Notes: generated by a model from the sequence alone, not told the origin. A DNA stretch of 64,000 bases from Candidatus Altiarchaeales archaeon (GCA_014727915.1 WJMO01000005.1:320001-384000); one strand, 5' to 3'; shown: positions 55,181-64,000, counted from the first letter of the stretch. Program-made: numbers and translations.

Positions 55181-55723
55181 GTGAAACCTAAGTTGTCTGT
55201 GAATGAGCGTAAGGTATTAGCCCACCTGATAGGGGACGGGCGGATATCCTGCACAGAAATCGCCCGAAATCTGGGGATAACCAGCCAGGCAGTGGGGAAG
55301 ATCAAGGACAAGCTGGAAAAGGAGGGGTTCATACAGGGGTACACGGCGGAAGTGGACTTCGAGAAGCTGGGCGTGAACGTCTTCGCCATAGCGTTCTTCA
55401 ACTTCAAGAGCGGCAGCTGGAGCAGGCTAGAACGCCAGGACATCATGCAACGGGTCAAAGGACCCCACCTGGTCAGGGTATACCGGCTCTCCGAAGGGGA
55501 CATAACCCACATGGTCGTCTACGGGTTCCGCAGCGTCAAGGAGATGGAACACTACTTCCAAGTCCTCCAAACCGAGAGGGAGCACATCAGCGAGCTGAAG
55601 AAAGTCTACGTCATATCCTCCGAGAGCATACTCAAAGACTCCCCCAAGGAGCTCTTCCTGAAGCTCATAGACGAACTGGACCTGGACGTCCTCGCCCGCC
55701 CGGAAAAGCCCAAGCCCATGTGA
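55181..55723 (+). CDS. Lrp/AsnC family transcriptional regulator
   Basis: DGRISCTEIARNLGIT...LEKEGFIQGYTAEVDFEKLG. Confidence 0.9.
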   Translation: MKPKLSVNERKVLAHLIGDGRISCTEIARNLGITSQAVGKIKDKLEKEGFIQGYTAEVDFEKLGVNVFAIAFFNFKSGSWSRLERQDIMQRVKGPHLVRVYRLSEGDITHMVVYGFRSVKEMEHYFQVLQTEREHISELKKVYVISSESILKDSPKELFLKLIDELDLDVLARPEKPKPM

Positions 55724-55726
55724 CCC

Positions 55727-56788
55727 TCATCCGATAATGGCCTTTGCGAAATCGGCAGGGGTTACGCCAGGCGATTGGACCGCGGACGAACTGTAGATAT
55801 TTCCTATGGCATCGGCTATCGCTGTCTCATCCGCCTTCACACCAGCCAACGCCTCCTCGATCTCGCCCACAACGTCGGGGTAGATGAAGAAGTCACCGGT
55901 CAACACAACCTCGGAGATCACATCATCCTTCAACGATGAGGATGCTCTTATCAATCCTCCGGGGGACTTATGGGTTGACTCCACCACGTGAACGCCCTCC
56001 GATATCTTCACCTTCCTGAATCCGGGATGCCGGCGTTTCACCTTGTTCAACCACTCATCGGACACGAAATACCCATCCAAACCCTCAATGATCTGAAGTT
56101 CCTCGGGTGACAACTCCCCACGGACCAGCTCCACATCCAATGTCTCCTTGAACTTGGAGATCAAAACCTCCTTCACCTCATCACGCGGAGGAACGCTGCC
56201 AAGCTCCCGTTTCACGGTCGTCAGATACTCGCTCATGGACTTGTACACCTTATCCCTGAACTTCTCATCCGGCACCTTCAACAACCTGGACATGGCCTCA
56301 TAGTTGAAGTCCAAGATCAGACTGCCCACGACAACAACACAGTCGCCCATGGTCGCGGCCCCCGTACCCCCGATCTTCCTGTTATCCACCTGCAGGTCGT
56401 TCACAGGCCGGTGAAAAGCCTCAATACCCAACGCCCTATACGCCTCCACAGGAGCCTTCAAAAACCTGTTATAGACCTCGGTGATATCCCGTGGCGCATG
56501 GTCCTTGTGGAACATGATATGGTAGAACAGCTGGTCACGGTCCAGGTACACCGCACCCCCGCCCACACGACGACGGTACACTGGAAGACCCATATCCCTA
56601 CAATAGTCCAGGTCCACCTCCTTCTCCAGCTCCTGGTGCATGCCAACGCACACATACGGGTCACCGGGGCTCAACAGCGAGATCGTATCCTGCCCCCCCG
56701 CGCTCACGCTCTCCGCAACCCCGTGGTAGATGGTCTGACTCCGCAGGGCAGACACAAAACCCAAATCCAACAACCTTACCTCTCTCAT
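55727..56788 (-). CDS. lplA: Lipoate--protein ligase (LplA catalytic plus accessory domain)
   Basis: RRRVGGGAVYLD, NDLQVDNRKIGGTG, HKSPGGLIR, TGDFF; N-terminal SQTIYH. Confidence 0.9.
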   Translation of the reverse strand: MREVRLLDLGFVSALRSQTIYHGVAESVSAGGQDTISLLSPGDPYVCVGMHQELEKEVDLDYCRDMGLPVYRRRVGGGAVYLDRDQLFYHIMFHKDHAPRDITEVYNRFLKAPVEAYRALGIEAFHRPVNDLQVDNRKIGGTGAATMGDCVVVVGSLILDFNYEAMSRLLKVPDEKFRDKVYKSMSEYLTTVKRELGSVPPRDEVKEVLISKFKETLDVELVRGELSPEELQIIEGLDGYFVSDEWLNKVKRRHPGFRKVKISEGVHVVESTHKSPGGLIRASSSLKDDVISEVVLTGDFFIYPDVVGEIEEALAGVKADETAIADAIGNIYSSSAVQSPGVTPADFAKAIIG

Positions 56789-56798
56789 AATATCACCA

Positions 56799-57629
56799 TT
56801 AAAACAACGTTTGAGCGGACGTCAACCCCATCGCAATGTACTGGACGCCCAAGAGGAGCAACACAACACCCCCAACATACCTTACGAACGTTAGCACATT
56901 GCTCCGCATGTACCTCTGAGCAACCTCGACAGAACCCCGCGCCAACATGATCATCAATGTCGGGGGTATGAAAGCGCCCACAGCGAACGAGGTGATGATG
57001 AGCACCGCCTTGCCCAGGGAGAACAGCAGGGAAGGCGCGGAGGCCGCGTTCGCCAACGCAACAGCGGAGATGGGAGCCAAGAACACGGACGCCTCCACCG
57101 TGCACACGAACCCCGTGACAGTCCCCCAGACCATGTACTCGACAGGGTGGTTCACGCTGAACACCGGCAGCTTCAAGTATTTGAACACCTGGGAGGTGAT
57201 GTAATGGCGGATGTCCAACAAACCAAGGAGGTCCGCGGACAACGCCACCATGAACACCCCCGCTACCAGTATGGCCACGGGTGCGATGGTATAGGATATG
57301 ACACTGCCAGCCAGGCCGGTGACAATGCCCAAGACTATGAAGGTTATGAACCTGCCCGCGGTGAACAACACCGACGAATAGAATGCCGCGCGGACGTTCT
57401 CCTCCCCCCCGGCGATATACGCAGCCAATGGCACACCACAGACAGGGCAGGATATCAGCCCGAACAACAGCCCCAGCCAGAGAGCCCACAAAGCCGAAGA
57501 ACCCGCGTTCTCCATGGCAACCGCCATATACGGCTGAAGCACGCCCATGGACTCGAGCATCCACCCGCGCACAAATACTACCAACGCAACGAACAGGAAC
57601 ACCAGAACCCCGGCCAACACCTTATTCAT
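56799..57629 (-). CDS. CcdA/DsbD-like multi-pass membrane protein
   Basis: SCPVCG and FVC Cys motifs in TM segments; F..GR motif. Confidence 0.65.
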   Translation of the reverse strand: MNKVLAGVLVFLFVALVVFVRGWMLESMGVLQPYMAVAMENAGSSALWALWLGLLFGLISCPVCGVPLAAYIAGGEENVRAAFYSSVLFTAGRFITFIVLGIVTGLAGSVISYTIAPVAILVAGVFMVALSADLLGLLDIRHYITSQVFKYLKLPVFSVNHPVEYMVWGTVTGFVCTVEASVFLAPISAVALANAASAPSLLFSLGKAVLIITSFAVGAFIPPTLMIMLARGSVEVAQRYMRSNVLTFVRYVGGVVLLLLGVQYIAMGLTSAQTLF

Positions 57630-58413
57630 CAGCCCTCACCTCCGCCTCCTCTTTGGGCTCGTACTTCTCCAGGAGCCTGTCCAGCTCGCTGAAGCAGGAC
57701 ACGATCAAGGATGAGACGGATATGAACTTGGTCTCCACACCCTGCTTGCCGCCTATCTGGGAGAGTAGGGCCTCGCAGCCGGCGCAGGCCAGCGGGCACA
57801 GGTCCGCCCCCGTCGCCCCCGCGTCCGACACCTTCTTCTCAGCCAACGCGGTCATGGCAGCCCCGTCAGACCCCGCCCCGCAGCAGGCGCAGGGGTCGCT
57901 CATCTCCACATAGGAGCCGCCAAGGTAATCCACAATAACCTCGTACAAGTCTTTGATCTTCACGCCCAAGGTCCGGTTCAAGTGGCACGAGTAATGGCCT
58001 GTGACCTTAACGGAGGAGTCTAGCTTCCTGTCAACCAACTTGTCCATCTCCCCCGACCTGATCAGCGCGTACGCGTACTCGAGGATGTTAACGGACTTGA
58101 ACCCCCGCCGCCTGAACTCCGGGTGCTCGCCCAGGTATGCGGTGCAGGAGGCGCAGGTGAACAACACATCCTTTATGCCCAACCTGTTCAACTGGTTCAA
58201 ATTGTACGTCAAGCACTCTTCCGCACCCTCCTCGTCGCCTATGCCCACGGAACCGTATCCGCAGCACCGCTCGTTGGGTATGGTCTTATACTCCTCAAGT
58301 ATGCCCGCTTCAACGGCCTTGTCCAACAATACGTAGGTGGACAGCCTCAACGTCTTCAGCATGCGCGAGGTCGTGCAGCCCTCGAAGAACACAAGCTTCC
58401 GTGGAATCCTCAT
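57622..58413 (-). CDS. HdrB-like CCG-domain Fe-S protein
   Basis: FFEGC...RCCG...TCASC and HYSCH...CCGAG...ACAGC. Confidence 0.85.
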   Translation of the reverse strand: MRIPRKLVFFEGCTTSRMLKTLRLSTYVLLDKAVEAGILEEYKTIPNERCCGYGSVGIGDEEGAEECLTYNLNQLNRLGIKDVLFTCASCTAYLGEHPEFRRRGFKSVNILEYAYALIRSGEMDKLVDRKLDSSVKVTGHYSCHLNRTLGVKIKDLYEVIVDYLGGSYVEMSDPCACCGAGSDGAAMTALAEKKVSDAGATGADLCPLACAGCEALLSQIGGKQGVETKFISVSSLIVSCFSELDRLLEKYEPKEEAEVRADE

Positions 58414-58997
58414 CTCCTGAATTTCAACCCCTCCCTAAGTTTTTTCAAGTCCTCAATGGCTTCCCCGCCAACTTCAGCCTTCTTCAAATCGTCCTCGAAG
58501 GGGTTGAAGAACTTCCTCAGCCGCTGGGCCTTGGTTATCCACATCCACGGCAGGTTGAAGCCCGAGCCTTTTATCCTGCGGACCACGGCCTCGTAGGTCC
58601 TCTTCATCTGCGGGTTCGGTATGGCCTGGATGCCGCTGATGGCATCATCCTCCAACGCACCCTTCAACTCCCTGTTGTAGATGTCCATGCACAGCTCGTC
58701 CACGCCCAGCTTCCTCGGGCACCGCTCCACGCAGGCTCCACAGCCGCTGCACAACTCGACATGGCCTTTAACGGCGTCATCGTATCGCCCGCTCTTCACA
58801 GCCACCATGATGTCCTTGGGCCCTATGTAGTCGCCTTCAACCGCGACGATGGGGCAGACCGCCCGGCACTGCTGGCACTCCATGCACAACACCGCGTTGC
58901 TCTGGTTACGCAGCGCAATATACGCTATCATGCCCAAGGGCACAAGCGTCAGGGCCGCAGCCACCCCAGCCGTTGAAACAAGCGTGAAAACCATCAT
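58410..58997 (-). CDS. HdrC-like 2x[4Fe-4S] protein with N-terminal TM anchor
   Basis: CMECQQCRAVCP and CSGCGACVERCPR. Confidence 0.85.
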   Translation of the reverse strand: MMVFTLVSTAGVAAALTLVPLGMIAYIALRNQSNAVLCMECQQCRAVCPIVAVEGDYIGPKDIMVAVKSGRYDDAVKGHVELCSGCGACVERCPRKLGVDELCMDIYNRELKGALEDDAISGIQAIPNPQMKRTYEAVVRRIKGSGFNLPWMWITKAQRLRKFFNPFEDDLKKAEVGGEAIEDLKKLREGLKFRR

Positions 58998-59800
58998 GGA
59001 AACCTCAATATCTTCTTCGGGCAGGCGTCAACGCATTTCATGCACTTTATGCACTCCGAATCCGTTATCGCCTTTCCCTCCTGTATGTACTTCTCAGCCA
59101 CCAGAACGTCCATGGGACACTCCTTCTCGCAGTTCAGGCATTTGATGCACTCGCCGGCAGAGCGTATGGGAAGCAGATGAAACCTGGCGAACAATGCGAG
59201 GAAGCCTCCGACGGGACAGAGGTAACCGCACCACATCTTCCGCCCGTGGAAGAACACCAGCAGCGAGACGATAGCGAACACGGGCACGGCCATGAATATG
59301 ACATGGCCCGTCAACCCCTTGAACAGCACGCCCGCGGGGCAGTAGTCGCAGAAGGACGTGTAACCCACGAGGAACGAGAGTATCAGGAACCCGAACAACA
59401 CCACATACTTCAGGTTCACGTCCTTCAGGTCATCAGGGGCCTTGTGGGCTCCCTTGAAGGGTGAGACTTTTTCAACGGCATCGAGGAAGGTGCCGAAGGG
59501 GCACAGCCAACCGCAGAACATCCTCCCAGAAAGCATGGCAAAGCATGTGAAGGCAGCCACGATGATATACGGTGATATGGTGGGGAGTGTTGTTGAAGGG
59601 TTCAACAGGTCAACCCGCTCCAAACCCAGGTATACGATGGACTCTGCTCCGGCCCGGGCGAACAAATCCTGCAAGTGCCAGAAGGGGTCCAGCCAGCAGA
59701 CGCCCATGGGGTTGTTGAACAGGAGATAGGTCAACGCGATGGTCAAGGCTACCGCAGCCGCCTGAACACCCAACCGCATGTGAGCTTTCTTCACGTTCAT
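58994..59800 (-). CDS. NapH/MauN/RdxA-like membrane Fe-S protein
   Basis: GRMFCGWLCPFG, FCDYCPAG, WCGYLCPVG, CIKCLNCEKECP, CIKCMKCVDACP. Confidence 0.9.
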   Translation of the reverse strand: MNVKKAHMRLGVQAAAVALTIALTYLLFNNPMGVCWLDPFWHLQDLFARAGAESIVYLGLERVDLLNPSTTLPTISPYIIVAAFTCFAMLSGRMFCGWLCPFGTFLDAVEKVSPFKGAHKAPDDLKDVNLKYVVLFGFLILSFLVGYTSFCDYCPAGVLFKGLTGHVIFMAVPVFAIVSLLVFFHGRKMWCGYLCPVGGFLALFARFHLLPIRSAGECIKCLNCEKECPMDVLVAEKYIQEGKAITDSECIKCMKCVDACPKKILRFP

Positions 59801-60144
59801 TCTACCGTATGCTTGTCCCTCTCCTCTCTGATGTTCAACCTGGTCAAAACCTTCGTGGGGCAGCCTTCAACGCAGAGGCCGCACCTGTCCCAGTCGAACC
59901 GGTCCTCCTCCTCCACCCATGATAGGCAGGCGCTCCGGTTGATCACCGGGAACCCCCGCCCGTCCACTGACATGGCGTTCACGGGGCACTTGCTGATACC
60001 ATAGTATTCCCTCGGGCACAGGCCCTCGAAGGACGTCGCGTCCTGCCTGGCCAACAATAGCCCCACACCCACGACTACCGCCAGCATGAACAACAGGCCC
60101 ATCCACCTGTTACCCCCCCGCCTGGTAGCGTCGCGTATCTCCAC
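59797..60144 (-). CDS. Membrane-anchored ferredoxin-like protein
   Basis: TM, then CP...KCPVNAM and CGLCVEGCPT. Confidence 0.75.
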   Translation of the reverse strand: MEIRDATRRGGNRWMGLLFMLAVVVGVGLLLARQDATSFEGLCPREYYGISKCPVNAMSVDGRGFPVINRSACLSWVEEEDRFDWDRCGLCVEGCPTKVLTRLNIREERDKHTVE

Positions 60145-60147
60145 CTT

Positions 60148-60777
60148 CTAATCCTCCCTGTACAACAGCCTCGTCGGGCACACCACAGTGCAGACCCCGT
60201 CTTCGATGCACTTGTTCCTGTCTATGACCGGCTTCACCCTCCCATACTCGCCTTCGTCCTTCACCAGCTCCAAGGCGAACACGGGACAGATGGTCTCCCC
60301 CTGCTTCCCGAGGAGGCACCGTTCCAACCCAAAGTTCCTGCTGGCGTCCATGGCCTCCAATAGCACGGGGTTGAACCTGTAACCCACATCGGGCTTCACG
60401 ATCTCGGAGACCTTATCCCCGTTGAATAACACGATGAACGACGCGTCCTCGCCGTCGGAGATGAACATCTCCCCGCTAACGACCCGCTTGAACCTCACAA
60501 CATGCCCGCCCACGTCATCGTAGGCGTAGACGGAAAGGTACTGGCCCTCATACTCTGACCCTATCCCCTCGGACAGGGACACCCTCACACCCCCGTCAAC
60601 CGCTTCGATCGAATAGGATTCCCTCGGGAACGGCGGCCTGACCTCCGGCCTGCCGGCGTAGGCGCTGCCTATAGTCTTCCCCAGCACCTTCAAACCTCCC
60701 CCGCTCATCGCCGCGCTCGCCAGGTAGACCATGACCACAACCACGGCTATGAAAGCCAGTATGTTGTTCCTATTCAT
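60148..60777 (-). CDS. Membrane-anchored protein with C-terminal ferredoxin domain
   Basis: N-terminal TM; RCLL...ICPV and KCIEDGVCTVVCPT. Confidence 0.75.
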   Translation of the reverse strand: MNRNNILAFIAVVVVMVYLASAAMSGGGLKVLGKTIGSAYAGRPEVRPPFPRESYSIEAVDGGVRVSLSEGIGSEYEGQYLSVYAYDDVGGHVVRFKRVVSGEMFISDGEDASFIVLFNGDKVSEIVKPDVGYRFNPVLLEAMDASRNFGLERCLLGKQGETICPVFALELVKDEGEYGRVKPVIDRNKCIEDGVCTVVCPTRLLYRED

Positions 60778-61246
60778 TGAAGACACCATCCTCCTTAAGA
60801 TCACGTATCGTATCCGTTATGGGCAGCTCGATGGGGCAGCTGCGCTCGCAGGCGCCCTCCAACGGGTCGTACTTGGCAGCGTCTTTGACCCTGAGCATGC
60901 GAACCTCCACGACCAAACCCTCGCCGAACCGTTCTATTGCCTCTCCAGCGGTCATCCGCTCCCCATCCACCTCAACGGTCATGTCCGGGTCCGTGCTATA
61001 GGCCTCGTCCAACCTTAGCTGGAGGTTCCGGGCGCTCATGTAGATGTCCGGGTCGTCCACGGCCGCCGCCACGACGAACTTCGCCACATCGTAGCCGAGG
61101 GGGCAGTTGAGGTTGCAGGCCCTGCACTGGTAGCAGGTCAGCGACCACGGATGCCCCGAACTATAGGCTGTGTAGGCGAACAATGCCAGGATTGCGGCTA
61201 TCACAAAGAACGCCACCACGTTGAAACGTCGATTCCCCTCTTCCAT
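60770..61246 (-). CDS. Membrane-anchored HdrC-like Fe-S protein with a degenerate second cluster motif
   Basis: CYQCRACNLNCPLG and DPLEGACERSCPIEL. Confidence 0.75.
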   Translation of the reverse strand: MEEGNRRFNVVAFFVIAAILALFAYTAYSSGHPWSLTCYQCRACNLNCPLGYDVAKFVVAAAVDDPDIYMSARNLQLRLDEAYSTDPDMTVEVDGERMTAGEAIERFGEGLVVEVRMLRVKDAAKYDPLEGACERSCPIELPITDTIRDLKEDGVFNE

Positions 61247-61250
61247 CTTC

Positions 61251-61400
61251 CTAGAGTATGTACATCAACAGGCCCACAACGGCCCCGCCCAATAGTCCCT
61301 CCAAGCTCACGGGGCTCGTGTTGAATGATATGTTGAACATGACACCAACCGCTAAACCGGCTCCAAGGTTCAAGGCCATTTTCATCCTAGTCTCGTCCAT
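61251..61400 (-). CDS. 49-aa Gly-rich two-helix membrane peptide (paralog B)
   Basis: Not in ORF track: MDETRMKMALNLGAGLAVGVMFNISFNTSPVSLEGLLGGAVVGLLMYIL. Confidence 0.7.
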   Translation of the reverse strand: MDETRMKMALNLGAGLAVGVMFNISFNTSPVSLEGLLGGAVVGLLMYIL

Positions 61401-61403
61401 CCT

Positions 61404-61556
61404 TCATAGGAGGGCCATCAGCAAGCCCACGAGCAAGCCGCCCATCACACCTCCCCTGTCCTTCCAACTGTGATCCAATGAAATGTTTATCATTATCCCA
61501 GTGACCAAACCCACCCCGAGGGCCGCCGCAAACAGTTCAACCGTGTATCCAACCAT
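61404..61556 (-). CDS. 50-aa Gly-rich two-helix membrane peptide (paralog A)
   Basis: Not in ORF track: MVGYTVELFAAALGVGLVTGIMINISLDHSWKDRGGVMGGLLVGLLMALL. Confidence 0.7.
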   Translation of the reverse strand: MVGYTVELFAAALGVGLVTGIMINISLDHSWKDRGGVMGGLLVGLLMALL

Positions 61557-61558
61557 CT

Positions 61559-62881
61559 TCATATGAACCCCAACAAGCTTATCGTCAACGCCGCGAACCC
61601 GGTCCCAACCAGTATGCCCACCTGCTGGGGCCTCCCCGACACGCCGATGGCCGTGCCCAGGTTGCCCTCGCCGATGCCGCCGATGCCGCCGATGGGCGAG
61701 GGTCCGCAGGATGCCGCCGCATTAACGATGAAGGCGGTCAACACTATGGGAACCGCGAAGGCGCTTCCAGTAACATCTCCCAGGCGGGTGCCGAACATGA
61801 GCACCCCCGGTATCAAGGCCATCCCGATGATCCTCCCGCAGGGCATGGGCAGTATGGTGGGCAGGTTCACCAGCAGCACAGCCACACCCACGTAGCCGAG
61901 GGGCGTCAACGCCACATTCTCCAGCAATTCGATCAGGACGTCGAAGCTGCCCACCGCCACCAGCGCACCCGCCATTATGAAACCTGATATCATGGCCATC
62001 ACCGGGTGCAATATCACGCCCGCTACCAGGTCCTGTATCGAAGTTTCCGAGATCACCATCACGACCAATACTATGAGCATGAGTACCGTCTGGATCGGGA
62101 CCGGCGGCTTCAACACGAACACCGAGGTTATGGTCAGCAGGAATATGCCCAACGCCAGGTAACCGGACCTGGGGATCTTCTCAGTCTTCTCCTTTTTCTC
62201 CTCAGCCTCCTCCTCAACGTTCAACAATGACTCGGACGGCATTATCCTGTATATGAACCTGGTTGACAGCATGGTAACCGCCGTTATCAGCATTATAGCT
62301 ATCTGCTGGGCGTTCCCGAAGGATCCCAGCTCGTAGCCGCCCATCCCCTCCCCGACCATGCCGATGCCGCCGATGGGCGAGGGTCCGCAGGATGCCGCCG
62401 CATTAACGATGAAGCCGAAGACGATGATGCTAGCCAGCAGGGGGCTCTTCTTCGCCTTCGCGATGTTATGGCCGAACAGTATCGCCGCGGGTATGAGCGC
62501 GGCAGCCATTATCCTCCCGCAGGGCATCGCAAGTATCGTGGGAGTGTTCACCAGCAACGCGACCGTGCCCGTCATCCCCACTGGTGTCCTGCTCGCCCGC
62601 TCGAGCAGGTGGATCGCCGCCCGGAAGGCTCCCGCAGCCTCTAGGGCTCCGGCAACCAGGAAACCAGCTATCAACGCGGTGATCGGGTGCAGGTACAGGT
62701 TGGACATGAGCTCCCTGACGCCCACGCTGTTGCCTGACATGAACGCCAATACAACCAGGACAATCGATGATAGGATCAGCGCTGACTGTATCGGGAGGAT
62801 GTCCTGCCGTATCCACCCCCGGAGCGATGCTACTATCACCCCGAAGAAGATTATCAACCCGGTCAAGCCCAGCAAGTCCAT
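61559..62881 (-). CDS. Internally duplicated polytopic membrane protein (IT-superfamily/transporter-like) with Cys motifs
   Basis: Two halves, each with LHP..A.I.GF..AGAL, MPCGRI and NAAASCGPSPIGGIG. Confidence 0.75.
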   Translation of the reverse strand: MDLLGLTGLIIFFGVIVASLRGWIRQDILPIQSALILSSIVLVVLAFMSGNSVGVRELMSNLYLHPITALIAGFLVAGALEAAGAFRAAIHLLERASRTPVGMTGTVALLVNTPTILAMPCGRIMAAALIPAAILFGHNIAKAKKSPLLASIIVFGFIVNAAASCGPSPIGGIGMVGEGMGGYELGSFGNAQQIAIMLITAVTMLSTRFIYRIMPSESLLNVEEEAEEKKEKTEKIPRSGYLALGIFLLTITSVFVLKPPVPIQTVLMLIVLVVMVISETSIQDLVAGVILHPVMAMISGFIMAGALVAVGSFDVLIELLENVALTPLGYVGVAVLLVNLPTILPMPCGRIIGMALIPGVLMFGTRLGDVTGSAFAVPIVLTAFIVNAAASCGPSPIGGIGGIGEGNLGTAIGVSGRPQQVGILVGTGFAALTISLLGFI

Positions 62882-62882
62882 A

Positions 62883-63245
62883 CTAGAACCTCACCTTCCC
62901 CACTCTGTTGGCTATGGTCCTGGAGCCGATTTCGGTCAATCCCACCCTGGAGCCGACGGAGAGCTTGTCTATGCAGATGTTGCAGGGGCTTGTCTCAGCG
63001 GATACTACACTACCATCCTCCAATTCGACTTTCAAGGGCAGGCTGGCCTTGCCGGACTGGTCGCCCGTAGAACATGACATGCACCCGTTCACGGAGCAGG
63101 CTTTCACACCCTCCAAACCCAGCGAGAGTATAACACCTGTCCGCTGGGGTCTGAATAGGGTCTTGAAGTTCAGGTAGACCAGGTAGATGCCCAGGGCTAT
63201 CAAAAAACCGAAAACGCCCTGGTTTACCGCTTCGACCGGGTTCAT
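62883..63245 (-). CDS. Single-TM protein with Cys motifs (CxxxxCxxC, CxxC)
   Basis: Likely start MNPVEAV at 63245, 2 nt after the GcvH-like stop; the ORF-track extension overlaps that gene. Confidence 0.7.
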   Translation of the reverse strand: MNPVEAVNQGVFGFLIALGIYLVYLNFKTLFRPQRTGVILSLGLEGVKACSVNGCMSCSTGDQSGKASLPLKVELEDGSVVSAETSPCNICIDKLSVGSRVGLTEIGSRTIANRVGKVRF

Positions 63246-63247
63246 GA

Positions 63248-63667
63248 TCACTTGGCGTGCTTCTGGACTTCGGCCTTCTGCCACTCCACGGCGGCGTCGC
63301 CCTTCATGAGGTTGTCCACCTCGCCGGGGTCGCTCATCTCGACCTCGAAGATCCAGCCCTCCCCGTAGGGGTCGCTGTTTATCTTCGAGGGGTCGTCGTA
63401 TAGGTCCTGGTTCACCGCTGTTATGCTCCCCGAAACTGGCGCGTAGAGGTCGCCCACCCATTTCTTCGTCTCTATGGTGCCGACCTTGTCGTCCTGTTTG
63501 ACCTCGTCGCCCTCGAAGGGCATCATCACATAGCTTATCTCTCCGGCCAGCTTCTGCGTGAAGTCTGTGGCGCCGACCTTGCACTTGTTGCCTTCGACCT
63601 TCGCCCAGTAGTGCTCCCTGTGATAGTAGAGCTCTTCCGGGAGGTCGTATCCTTCAACGTCAACCAT
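63248..63667 (-). CDS. GcvH-family lipoyl carrier, LbpA-like
   Basis: LYYHREHYW, VGATDF, IETKKWVG lipoyl-Lys motif, APVSG, INSDPYGEGW; AGGTGA Shine-Dalgarno. Confidence 0.88.
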   Translation of the reverse strand: MVDVEGYDLPEELYYHREHYWAKVEGNKCKVGATDFTQKLAGEISYVMMPFEGDEVKQDDKVGTIETKKWVGDLYAPVSGSITAVNQDLYDDPSKINSDPYGEGWIFEVEMSDPGEVDNLMKGDAAVEWQKAEVQKHAK

Positions 63668-63683
63668 CCAAATCACCTATGAA

Positions 63684-64000
63684 TTATACTGGGGTGTAAG
63701 CGTATGCCTTGCCAAACGGCCTTGATGAACTGGGAGCTATCTTCGTGAACTTCTCTCCCTTCAGGAGCTCCGCTGGCACGTTGAAGTGGTCGCAGAACTT
63801 CTTCAATATCTCGTTCAACTCCCTCTGGTCCTCCTCGCTCATCTCCTTATTGGACGCGTATATGCCCAGCAGCTCCTCGCGGACGTCCCCGCGCATGTAT
63901 ATCTTCCCCCCGTGGATGCCGGCTCCAAGGTCTGTCTGGGCCAGTTCACACTCCATGAGCTTGATCTTCTTGGGGTCGATGTTCTTCTTCTCCATGGGCT
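63684..64000 (-). CDS. Glutamate synthase domain-3 (GXGXG, GltB3-like) protein, C-terminal part (runs off window end)
   Basis: LGAGIHGGKIYMRG...FTKIAPSSSRPFG..Y. Confidence 0.75.
   Translation of the reverse strand, partial: PMEKKNIDPKKIKLMECELAQTDLGAGIHGGKIYMRGDVREELLGIYASNKEMSEEDQRELNEILKKFCDHFNVPAELLKGEKFTKIAPSSSRPFGKAYAYTPV

Follow-up and report, generated by a model that had tools for sequence, protein, structure and literature searches.

What does a compact row of archaeal redox genes do when it encodes, side by side, a lipoyl carrier, heterodisulfide reductase (Hdr)-like proteins, a transporter-like membrane protein and a glutamate synthase, and which of these genes form its core? The genes in question lie on the minus strand at positions 55727 to 64000 of a 64,000-nucleotide stretch of a Candidatus Altiarchaeales archaeon (GCA_014727915.1, WJMO01000005.1:320001-384000). 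This stretch, here called the window, corresponds to G000:C12:320001-384000, where G000 is an assembly of 1.81 Mb in 13 contigs that is 90.6% complete. An initial annotation read the row as an undescribed membrane-bound system in which a lipoyl carrier of the LbpA type is recycled by a tethered HdrBC, possibly in the service of amino-acid or amine oxidation. This interpretation, taken as a whole, is partly supported by our analysis. The row does contain a conserved, membrane-bound, Hdr-like cassette for which we found no matching characterised complex, and its membrane iron-sulfur (Fe-S) module belongs to no described system. The module, however, and not the lipoyl genes, is the evolutionary core.

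Results

The minus strand from 55727 to 64000 carries 14 tightly packed genes, neighbours being separated by anything from an 8-nt overlap to a 14-nt gap, in line with the at least 13 co-oriented and closely spaced genes counted initially. The sole exception to this spacing is the gene of a 218-aa protein, which overlaps its neighbour by 35 nt when read from its longest start, a GTG, and by 8 nt when read from an internal ATG that is probably the true start. The genes first proposed are thus real, but the row had been ended too early: past the window end it goes on with equally tight spacing through GltB3, GltB2, GltB1 and an HdrB-HdrC fusion, with four further genes up to L002:13492 (window position 68492). 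The whole block, with the contig read past the window, comprises 18 genes in about 12.8 kb.

Transcription runs from GltB3, which is cut at the window end, through GcvH2, TMCys, a 440-aa permease and the small peptides sm52 and sm49, and then through FeS158, FeS218, FeS115, a NapH-like protein, a transmembrane (TM) HdrC-like protein, an HdrB-like protein, a DsbD_2/CcdA-like protein and LplA2. The operon is composed of three units: a membrane Fe-S module of ten genes (TMCys, permease, sm52, sm49, FeS158, FeS218, FeS115, NapH-like, HdrC-like and HdrB-like), a lipoyl set (GcvH2, the DsbD_2/CcdA-like protein and LplA2), and a split glutamate synthase (GltB1, GltB2 and GltB3) with its own HdrB-HdrC fusion. 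In line with the initial annotation, the operon encodes no flavoprotein able to recycle lipoamide; its two HdrB-type proteins hold all four CCG domains found in a search of the genome. No HdrA was recognised in the row, in which no HdrA family search was made, and no sulfur-transferase gene (TusA, DsbE-type DsrE, rhodanese) was recognised among its family matches. Several Fer4 matches, the CitMHS match and all NCBIfam equivalogs but that of GcvH fall below curated cut-offs, which are given with the scores below.

The order of the module genes is conserved, as had been predicted of a genuine cassette. From TMCys to HdrB, by way of the permease, small peptides, FeS158, FeS218, FeS115, NapH and HdrC, they are collinear in five other Altiarchaeota genomes from two families, and the core genes recur at 16 loci; such an order is far beyond chance. 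The 16 loci were called Altiarchaeota-type among 80 permease loci that we classified from genome and metagenome collections, where many loci are cut by contig ends and several are close kin; one of the 16, L069, really belongs to a third arrangement. NapH and FeS158 are present at all 16, FeS218 and FeS115 at 15 each, HdrB and HdrC at 14 each, a DsbD_2-like gene of either type at 9 and a CBS-domain protein at 6. The lipoyl parts, which had been placed at the centre of the system, do not hold that place: GcvH is found at 4 of the 16 loci and LplA at 1, GcvH2 occurs in five genomes in which the permease was not found, and the loci with the bacterial version of the core gave no match to GcvH, LplA or HdrB.

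The third arrangement, seen at seven loci plus L069, has HdrC-like and HdrB-like genes followed by TMCys, the permease, a small peptide and a NapH-like gene. The association of permease, TMCys, small peptides and anchored Fe-S proteins spans archaea and bacteria.

Homologs of the reductive dehalogenase RdhA, one to three per locus, adjoin the permease in 24 of the 80 loci (PDB 4ras at E 2.5e-49, PceA at 1e-33 to 1e-38; TIGR02486 148-155 bits, cut-off 160). These proteins have hydrophobic N-termini, and the genes after theirs encode homologs of FeS158, FeS218 and the TM-HdrC-like protein, often together with a DUF4430/prenyltransferase-like protein (69.5 bits), which we take to be transcobalamin-like. 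No match to HdrB, GcvH or LplA was found in the RdhA-type loci. The end of the module is an HdrB-type protein in Altiarchaeota and a membrane-anchored RdhA homolog in bacteria. Loci L030-L050 and others, for example L032:6248-15064 and L048:4480-18463, are apparently bacterial clusters that combine one to three TM-anchored RdhA homologs with the permease core.

TM-anchored RdhA proteins that lack a twin-arginine translocation (Tat) signal are known as 'hybrid' reductive dehalogenases (RDases), with function unknown (Atashgahi 2019, PMC6797604). The window itself has no RdhA, whereas the bacterial relatives of its module directly adjoin such proteins, often in two or three copies. The words neighbour (or neighbor), gene cluster, flanking, ferredoxin and transporter are all absent from the text of PMC6797604, and the accompanying module therefore seems undescribed there. 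The permease and Fe-S set may be the missing electron-transfer partners of the hybrid RDases.

The permease (61559..62881, minus strand) is the centre of the module. It has an elevator-type fold of the IT superfamily, similar to DASS and ArsB proteins, with an internal two-fold repeat, and each half carries one MPCGR motif and one AAASCGPSP(I/L)GGIG motif. Across 18 diverse homologs the residues C121, C165, C348, C392, R123 and R350 are invariant within the motifs MPCGR and ASC(G/A)PS, and an AlphaFold2 model (pLDDT 85.7, pTM 0.87) places all four cysteines at helix breaks. A Foldseek comparison of this model with the PDB returned 34 matches at E<=1e-3, of which those listed are all IT-superfamily transporters with TM-scores up to 0.67; among them are VcINDY (5ul7), NaS1 and ArsB (10tp), at E 4e-6 to 1e-4, and TRAP-M, with a TM-score of about 0.65 and 12-18% identity. 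The superfamily is not recovered at the sequence level: CitMHS scores 25.6 bits (cut-off 31.9), no NCBIfam transporter model matches, and a permease profile has 0 matches among PDB sequences at E<=1. The four-cysteine site could be a substrate-binding site or a metal or Fe-S centre.

A word-seeded profile search for the permease retrieved 443 proteins at E<=1e-5; the source names listed for the best 120 matches are 'hypothetical protein' and one 'MFS family permease', and sources identified by name range over Desulfobacula, Syntrophobacteraceae, Acidobacteria, Spirochaetota and Methanomassiliicoccales. HMMER against 1.84 billion representatives matched 67 clusters at E<=1e-3, 58 at 1e-10 and 34 at 1e-30, with almost no tail into other families, so that the family is small and sharply bounded. 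Within Altiarchaeota we found it in 10 of 61 species genomes (2 of 21 in family f1, including G000, 8 of 22 in family f5 and 0 of 18 elsewhere). No description of the family or the cassette was found in the literature text covered, which does not extend to figures or supplements and cannot be searched by name for an unnamed family; the neighbourhood figures of two RdhA papers (Fig. 4 of PMC12219181, Fig. 6 of PMC12090745) may show such genes unlabelled.

Natural variants of the permease bear on its topology. In the natural fusion P0131, TMCys (34% identity over 105 aa, E 6e-17) is joined to the permease N-half by way of a further TM segment and about 170 residues, and P0128 has a signal-like segment and a long Asn-rich domain directly ahead of the first permease helix. 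From these architectures we infer that the N-terminus of the permease would lie outside and the Cys-domain of TMCys inside. At L078:2-1650 the permease is split at the repeat boundary into two genes. P0131, P0128 and P0129 also illustrate domain shuffling, in which large, presumably extracellular N-terminal domains are fused to the permease N-half; NCBIfam gave nothing for 9 of 10 such extensions of fused permease halves and a weak S-layer-type match for P0157 (29.3 bits, cut-off 110).

Co-folding of the permease with FeS158 gave a median of 0.38, against 0.00 for the best control, with contact agreement of at least 95% between runs and a partner pLDDT of at least 77. In the calibration the mark was reached by 58 of 80 solved complexes and by 2 of 110 mismatched pairs, and a pass at or below 0.60 is wrong in more cases than not where the pairing was not already probable; this one is rated as weak support.

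The remaining proteins of the module are small and, for the most part, anchored in the membrane. TMCys (62883..63233, minus strand; 116 aa) consists of an N-terminal TM helix and a small beta-barrel with a variable CxxC and an invariant SPCxxC. It has no Pfam or NCBIfam match. Over 20 sequences C84 and C87 are invariant and C51 is nearly so. Its model (pLDDT 78.5) has no Foldseek match in the PDB at E<=1e-3, the best, at 1.2e-2, being to OB-fold proteins, DUF35 and Mop/tungbindin. The single-TM peptides sm52 (61404..61562, minus strand; 52 aa) and sm49 (61251..61400, minus strand; 49 aa) are paralogs, 49% identical over 41 aa (E 5e-10), and small reading frames homologous to sm49 adjoin the permease in other archaeal and some bacterial loci. 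Separate small-peptide genes are thus present in some bacterial loci, and the C-terminal extension of some aligned permeases has a G-x3-G...N...GG-x2-GG pattern that resembles the small peptides. We do not claim that the peptides are fused to the C-terminus of the bacterial permease (sm49 against P0048, BLAST E 2.8).

FeS158 (60770..61246, minus strand; 158 aa, TM-anchored) is the most constant gene after the permease in archaea and bacteria; all its Fer4 matches are below cut-off, and C38, C41, C44, C48 and C133 are invariant, with C137 nearly so, over 21 sequences. FeS218 (60148..60804, minus strand; 218 aa) has a TM helix, a domain of about 130 aa without a family match and a C-terminal [4Fe-4S] motif. 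It is the only anchored Fe-S protein above a cut-off (PF00037, 23.5 bits, cut-off 21.1), and its homologs are present in archaeal and bacterial loci. FeS115 (59797..60144, minus strand; 115 aa) is ferredoxin-like, with a basic N-terminus and one TM helix. Fer4_7 matches the anchored proteins at 26.9 and, for FeS115, 25.2 bits (cut-off 27) and Fer4 mostly stays below threshold; the CxxCxxCxxxC motifs are kept across homologs. Export of these proteins by the Tat pathway was considered and rejected: the RR pair of FeS158 and FeS115 in G000 is replaced by RQ, RS, RN, RE or TRT in homologs and is absent from the bacterial ones (14 homologs in the FeS115 alignment).

The NapH/MauN-family protein (58994..59800, minus strand) is a polytopic Fe-S membrane protein with two stretches matching Fer4_5 (PF12801, 64.6 bits). 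It has the Fer4_5 TM motifs and two C-terminal [4Fe-4S] sites (Fer4_10, 38.9 bits), and its score against TIGR02163 is 107.7 bits (cut-off 213.05), short of the family level. A Tat-exported partner of the NapG type was not found for it, the RR pair being unconserved in FeS158 and FeS115. The HdrC-like protein (58410..58997, minus strand) has an N-terminal TM helix and two [4Fe-4S] sites (Fer4_8 40.8 bits, Fer4_17 36.1 bits; TIGR03290 HdrC 27 bits, cut-off 160). The HdrB-like protein (57622..58413, minus strand) has no TM segment. It matches PF02754 in two stretches (53.4 bits) and has two intact CCG motifs, both CXnCCGXmCXXC motifs being conserved in an alignment with 18 homologs. It lies far under the equivalog level (TIGR03288 26.6 bits, cut-off 345.15); the best NCBIfam scores, for LdhH (73.9 bits) and TfrB (58.4 bits), are both far below their cut-offs.

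Immediately upstream of the module at L025:2961-9377 (and at L017), the opposite strand has genes that to the eye resemble those of the large and small subunits of a [NiFe]-hydrogenase and of an HdrA-like flavoprotein, together with two HdrB/C-like matches; no family search was made on this region. These hydrogenase and HdrA-like genes could be the electron source of the module in that lineage.

Two genes of the lipoyl set are second copies, encoding a divergent GcvH paralog and a complete ligase of the Lpl(AB) type; the canonical genes lie elsewhere. GcvH2 (63248..63676, minus strand; PF01597 127.4-127.7 bits, cut-off 22.2) carries the motif ETKKWVG and keeps the lipoyl lysine: aligned to solved GcvH (ESVK), the second K of ETKK falls on that residue. 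It passes the NCBI cut-offs for GcvH, NF002270 clearly (137.7 against 117 bits) and TIGR00527 barely (117.1 against 115.85 bits). In a tree of 18 GcvH-family proteins of Altiarchaeota it falls in a clade of 10 (support 95/93) from families f1, f3, f4 and f5, which share ET(G/K)KW(V/T)G and are separate from GcvH1 and from two other orphan types. Outside the phylum its closest relatives, annotated as GcvH, are proteins of Candidatus Aerophobetes (60-66% identity) and Thermodesulfobacteriota (about 48%). The initial annotation had taken KWVG as typical of LbpA; as seen here, KW(V/L)G is the mark of a GcvH-like clade of anaerobes made up of Altiarchaeota, Aerophobetes and Thermodesulfobacteriota.

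GcvH2 had been taken for a carrier of the LbpA type, and this assignment is not supported. LbpA proteins are described as a separate clade, with two conserved cysteines near the ends of the chain and a surface charge unlike that of GcvH; some archaeal members are exceptions to the two-cysteine rule (PMC6067878 and a 2026 preprint). GcvH2 has the lipoyl lysine of an LbpA and lacks the two cysteines: its clade has 0-1 Cys at positions that are not conserved, GcvH2 itself having one (C32). The clade is acidic like GcvH (isoelectric point 4.07-4.71). An shdr cluster with HdrA does not accompany it, no HdrA-like gene having been seen in the row, for which HdrA family searching was not done.

Nor is GcvH2 encoded beside the partners of glycine cleavage. 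The initial annotation had seen no GcvP, GcvT or Lpd; this is true locally, whereas gcvT, gcvH1, gcvPA, gcvPB, LipA, LplA1 and Lpd are all on the same contig. They form a canonical lipoate and glycine-cleavage region at G000:C12:297649-310987, about 65 kb from the block and 9-22 kb before the window start, with Lpd (Pyr_redox_dim 110.7 bits), LplA1 (199.5 bits), LipA (325.2 bits), gcvPB, gcvPA, gcvH1 (163.9 bits) and gcvT; it is GcvH1 (C12:309522-309878) that is flanked by gcvT, gcvPA and gcvPB. In family f1 the two module-bearing genomes are the only ones of 21 with a second GcvH.

LplA2 (55727..56788, minus strand), the last gene of the operon, has the catalytic domain (PF21948, 137-138.6 bits) and the C-terminal, LplB-like domain (PF10437, 36.3 bits) expected of an Lpl(AB) ligase and scores 144.5 bits against NCBIfam TIGR00545 (cut-off 280). 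It is the second of two LplA-family genes in G000. At Altiarchaeota-type loci GcvH genes lie immediately upstream in L014 and L019 and downstream, on the other strand, in L026 and L083.

Orphan GcvH proteins are common in the phylum. GcvH-family genes, of at least four clades, are present in 46 of 61 Altiarchaeota genomes and GcvP in 13 of 61, all in family f1; members of the GcvH2 clade also occur in families in which 0 of 40 genomes have GcvP. In 33 of the 61 genomes a GcvH-family gene is present with no GcvP match at E<=1e-20, and the carriers of these genomes therefore serve something other than glycine cleavage.

Some of their neighbours suggest thiol chemistry. The DsbD_2/CcdA-like protein of the block (56799..57629, minus strand) is a polytopic membrane protein with CxxC in one TM segment (PF13386 26.6 bits, cut-off 24.9; best NCBIfam ArsG, 28.5 bits, cut-off 200); by eye, the CxxC and one further Cys are conserved in homologs, which lie downstream of HdrB in other loci. 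Of 10 GcvH2 loci, 5 (the window's own, L014, L019, L026 and L116) have a DsbD_2-like gene no more than about 6.5 kb from the carrier gene; in L116 GcvH2 stands beside a CBS protein and a DsbD_2 protein (48.8 bits). In family f5 a protein with four CBS domains (187.7 bits) is paired with a DsbD_2-like protein, downstream of HdrB or beside GcvH2 (L015:15498-17086, L026:9898-11500, L116:82-1770, L019:10050-11570), and the pairing holds in G030, where the permease was not found.

All three loci of family f9 (L106:5424-10790, L107:6338-11800, L108:6143-11580) carry an orphan GcvH (ESVKWSGH) in a row with a Cys-bearing thioredoxin (Trx)-like membrane protein, a reductase with Pyr_redox_2 and dimerisation domains (129.7 bits), a CMD/AhpD-family protein (79.7 bits), a LipA-like radical-SAM protein and LplA, in genomes without a GcvP match. 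The Trx-like/TM-Cys proteins encoded upstream of GcvH at L106 and L114 had seemed DsbD-like by eye, an assignment that we dropped for want of a Pfam match at E<=1e-3. The f9 row looks like a self-contained lipoyl-dependent thiol-redox system, and the donation of electrons by lipoylated proteins to AhpD and Ohr/OsmC is already known (PMC8945050). The orphan GcvH proteins of the phylum therefore look like thiol-redox carriers, and their recurrence beside DsbD_2-like and AhpD-like genes makes a role in thiol relays plausible. In f9 the carrier would be recycled by a flavoprotein, whereas the block studied here has two HdrB-type proteins and no flavoprotein.

Both GltB1 and GltB2, which had been sought past the window, lie upstream of GltB3 in the same row. 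GltB3 is represented in the window by its C-terminal part (63684..64000, minus strand; full gene L002:8684-9523; GXGXG, PF01493 82.4 bits when read whole). It is preceded by GltB2 (L002:9526-11058; PF01645 Glu_synthase 414.6 bits, with an N-terminal Fer4), by GltB1 (L002:11052-12164; PF00310 GATase_2 48.4 bits) and by the 437-aa HdrB-HdrC fusion (L002:12179-13492; CCG 87 bits, Fer4_8 29.2 bits). With amidotransferase, FMN/Fe-S synthase and GXGXG proteins as separate genes in one row, this is an archaeal split glutamate synthase. At L123:6868-11841 on contig C9 of G011, also of family f1, GltB1 and GltB2 are followed by a match to a thioredoxin reductase (TrxR)-like pyridine nucleotide-disulfide oxidoreductase and then by GltB3, with no HdrB-HdrC fusion. 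It seems that the part through which electrons enter the split glutamate synthase can be exchanged, and on this comparison the fusion would fill that role in G000 and G002.

The block is an insertion. It is bracketed on the other strand by HTH1 (55181..55723, plus strand; Pfam HTH_24 36.7 bits, NCBIfam Lrp models below cut-offs), a regulator of the Lrp/AsnC type, and by its paralog HTH2 (window 68720-69259, L002:13720-14259; 67% identical to HTH1), one at each edge. In the congeneric G001 (92% complete) a TrxR-like gene, a single regulator and gdhA are directly adjacent (G001:C4:10662-14002, L121), with no GltB2 match at E<=1e-30 and no permease match in that genome. One regulator and no block in G001 indicate an insertion with either a duplicated or a carried-in regulator. 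In G002, of another genus of the same family, the entire block recurs with its order kept, a different upstream flank and a downstream flank cut by the contig end. The glutamate synthase, GcvH2, module and LplA2 have thus moved as a unit in two genera.

The proposed link to glutamate synthase is therefore borne out to the extent that all parts share one operon and recur together in G002, but it is not general, GltB2 being found at 1 of the 16 Altiarchaeota-type loci. The proximity of gdhA and the Lrp-type regulator, which had been pointed out, arises only through the insertion, since the TrxR-like gene, regulator and gdhA are contiguous in G001; we reject a functional tie to either. Nothing points to amino-acid or amine oxidation.

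Discussion

The block shares features with several known systems and coincides with none of them. In the sHdr-LbpA system with its sLpl(AB) ligase, as described by Cao et al. (2018, PMC6067878), a GcvH-like carrier and an Lpl(AB)-type ligase are likewise encoded with HdrB- and HdrC-type proteins, in a set separate from the housekeeping lipoylation genes. Unlike that system, as it is described there, the block has no sHdrC1B1AHC2B2 set (neither HdrA, for which no family search was made, nor TusA, DsbE-type DsrE or rhodanese was recognised in the row), its Hdr-like part has membrane anchors and is linked with a permease, a NapH-like protein and polyferredoxins, its carrier lacks the two LbpA cysteines and is absent from most copies of the module, and its host belongs to a lineage of anaerobic autotrophs and not to the known sulfur oxidisers.

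The module also recalls the membrane-bound Hdr-related redox complexes of anaerobes. In DsrMKJOP, HmeCD/HdrDE, QmoABC and Tmc [4Fe-4S] proteins connect a catalytic CCG protein on the cytoplasmic side with integral membrane subunits, presumably for thiol/disulfide chemistry. The block differs from these in that it has no haem-b subunit of the NarI/HdrE type and no cytochrome c, its membrane part is made of a NapH-family protein, the four-cysteine permease, TMCys and small peptides, and its module HdrB and HdrC are separate chains, the HdrC with a TM anchor of its own. With NapGH/MauMN (TIGR02163) it shares a polytopic NapH-family protein with Fer4_5 motifs, two C-terminal [4Fe-4S] sites and several ferredoxin-like neighbours; however, its score is half of the cut-off (107.7 against 213 bits), the partner Fe-S proteins have no conserved Tat motif, and there is no nitrate reductase or amine dehydrogenase.

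The permease has the overall fold, two-fold inverted repeat and helix-break or hairpin elements of the DASS and ArsB transporters (VcINDY 5ul7, NaS1, ArsB 10tp). The helix breaks of DASS proteins carry motifs of the Ser-Asn-Thr type, whereas those of the permease have invariant Cys and Arg (MPCGR, ASCGPSP); unlike these transporters, the permease is always accompanied by Fe-S proteins and is sometimes halved (L078) or fused to TMCys (P0131). In Firmicutes, stress operons of the GcvH-L/LplA2 type pair a spare GcvH with a spare LplA. The block has no gene for a peroxiredoxin, AhpD, sirtuin or macrodomain protein, an AhpD-family protein being seen only in the f9 variant. In the relays Lpd-SucB/DlaT-AhpD-AhpC and Ohr/OsmC (PMC8945050) a lipoylated protein is a two-electron donor to thiol-disulfide proteins instead of serving glycine cleavage or 2-oxoacid oxidation, as proposed here; the proposed reductant of the block is of the Fe-S/Hdr type and not the flavoprotein Lpd, and the proposed acceptor is a DsbD_2/CcdA-like protein.

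We tentatively favour the view, though we hold it at somewhat less than even odds, that the module is a new membrane Hdr-type thiol/disulfide complex which in this archaeon uses lipoyl-GcvH2 as a shuttle. The module would be a membrane-bound electron-transfer complex with exchangeable catalytic heads, in which a catalytic subunit on the cytoplasmic side of the membrane receives electrons through the Fe-S chain. Two CCG motifs mark the disulfide-handling site of known Hdr enzymes, and in G000 and G002 the HdrB head would handle the lipoyl disulfide of GcvH2, which LplA2 would charge with its lipoyl group. Reduced GcvH2 would then act in the manner of thioredoxin, passing two electrons to the DsbD_2/CcdA-like protein for the reduction of extracellular thiols, and might also serve the HdrB-HdrC fusion that would feed glutamate synthase.

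Several observations weigh against this proposal. The bacterial loci, without matches to HdrB, GcvH or LplA, imply that the core function cannot depend on lipoate, and even among the Altiarchaeota-type loci GcvH (4 of 16), LplA (1 of 16) and GltB2 (1 of 16) are rare; the loci are, moreover, not all independent, L017 and L025 appearing to be identical in sequence. GcvH2 also leads a life apart from the module: it has orthologs in G022, G023, G028, G030 and G037 (82-93% complete), where the permease was not found, and it elsewhere adjoins Ftr (FTR 144.7 bits, FTR_C 183.5 bits), lies near an Amidohydro_3 protein, FwdA-like by eye, that is next to a gene GXGXG-like by eye, or stands beside genes that by eye resemble 2-oxoacid:ferredoxin oxidoreductases. 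The GcvH of L083 belongs to another clade. No hydrogenase, flavoprotein or cytochrome in the block offers a source of electrons, and the DsbD_2 assignment is marginal (26.6 against 24.9 bits). The basic N-termini of the anchored proteins suggest that their Fe-S domains face outward, yet the twin-arginine motif is not conserved. Finally, the sole co-fold, of permease and FeS158, was graded weak.

The lipoyl group may have no part in the core at all. On a reading that we consider possible but doubtful, the permease would take up some anionic or thiol-reactive compound (for example a sulfur species, a metalloid, an organic disulfide or an organic halide), which a tethered protein, HdrB-like in Altiarchaeota and RdhA-like in bacteria, would reduce at once with electrons from the anchored ferredoxin-like proteins, while GcvH2, LplA2, the DsbD_2-like protein and glutamate synthase would be carried along as passengers on that genomic island. 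Transporters with the elevator-type fold bind their substrates at helix breaks, and the permease, with a genuine transporter fold (VcINDY, NaS1, ArsB; TM-score about 0.65), has its invariant Cys and Arg there; a transporter role does not, however, account for a Cys-rich cytoplasmic domain, whether fused or adjacent, or for the five Fe-S proteins. The catalytic partner varies by lineage around a constant permease/Fe-S core, and the bacterial DUF4430/prenyltransferase-like protein fits a cluster for cofactor-dependent substrate processing, but no candidate substrate can be named. The absence of the lipoyl genes from most loci and the insertion of the block agree with a passenger status, which leaves unexplained why a dedicated carrier and ligase are kept in two genera and why orphan GcvH genes recur beside DsbD_2-like ones.

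The permease might instead be no solute carrier at all. A bolder proposal, which we think unlikely, makes it a new respiratory coupling subunit of elevator fold, whose four cysteines, two per inverted repeat, would hold an intramembrane Fe-S or metal centre, or a covalent sulfur substrate, and would move electrons across the membrane, or drive ion movement, between Fe-S proteins on its two faces. Archaea would plug in HdrB and bacteria a TM-anchored RdhA, and the archaeal HdrB would use lipoyl-GcvH2 as a diffusible shuttle that also feeds the Hdr-linked glutamate synthase and a DsbD_2-type exporter of reducing power. NqrD/E and RnfA/E are comparable subunits with an intramembrane centre. Exactly four invariant cysteines at four helix breaks of a two-fold inverted repeat are suggestive, as is the constant company of TM-anchored Fe-S proteins and a Cys-rich cytoplasmic partner, and the bacterial version has no other subunit able to carry electrons across the membrane; still, the cluster on the four cysteines is a prediction, and the fold is otherwise known only from transporters. 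The basic N-termini of FeS115 and FeS158 ahead of their TM helices would put the Fe-S domains outside, although such export without a Tat signal would be unusual and the RR pair is unconserved. Least probable, and in our judgement very improbable, is a dedicated lipoyl system of the LbpA/sHdr kind, with lipoamide recycling by HdrBC as its core and a coupling to amino-acid or amine oxidation through the GltB-like protein, gdhA and Lrp. A carrier that is divergent, a ligase, two Hdr-like proteins and a glutamate synthase in one operon without a flavoprotein are what such a system would contain. The synteny counts already largely contradict it, the module being mostly without GcvH and LplA, and the details do not favour it either: the carrier lacks the two cysteines, is acidic, passes the GcvH cut-offs and has its nearest relatives in anaerobes; HdrA was not seen in the row (again with no family search), nor was a sulfur transferase recognised there; insertion alone brought gdhA and the Lrp-type regulator next to the block; and the three GltB proteins form an ordinary split glutamate synthase.

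Returning to the shuttle-bearing Hdr-type complex that we favour, the cassette ties together three groups of proteins whose partners or function have so far been unassigned, namely the hybrid RdhA of marine and subsurface bacteria, the orphan GcvH of archaea without glycine cleavage and the HdrB-like proteins of non-methanogens, and links them to one small, unnamed family of four-cysteine permeases. That family is present in cultured Desulfobacula species, D. toluolica and D. phenolica among them, which brings the bacterial version within reach of experiment. Should the module turn out to deliver electrons or to couple energy, anaerobic respiration would gain a new building block, common to archaea and bacteria, and the TM-anchored RdhA enzymes would gain their missing electron path. 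If lipoyl-GcvH2 is its shuttle in Altiarchaeota, lipoate would gain a thioredoxin-like role that is driven by Fe-S/Hdr chemistry and not by a flavoprotein.

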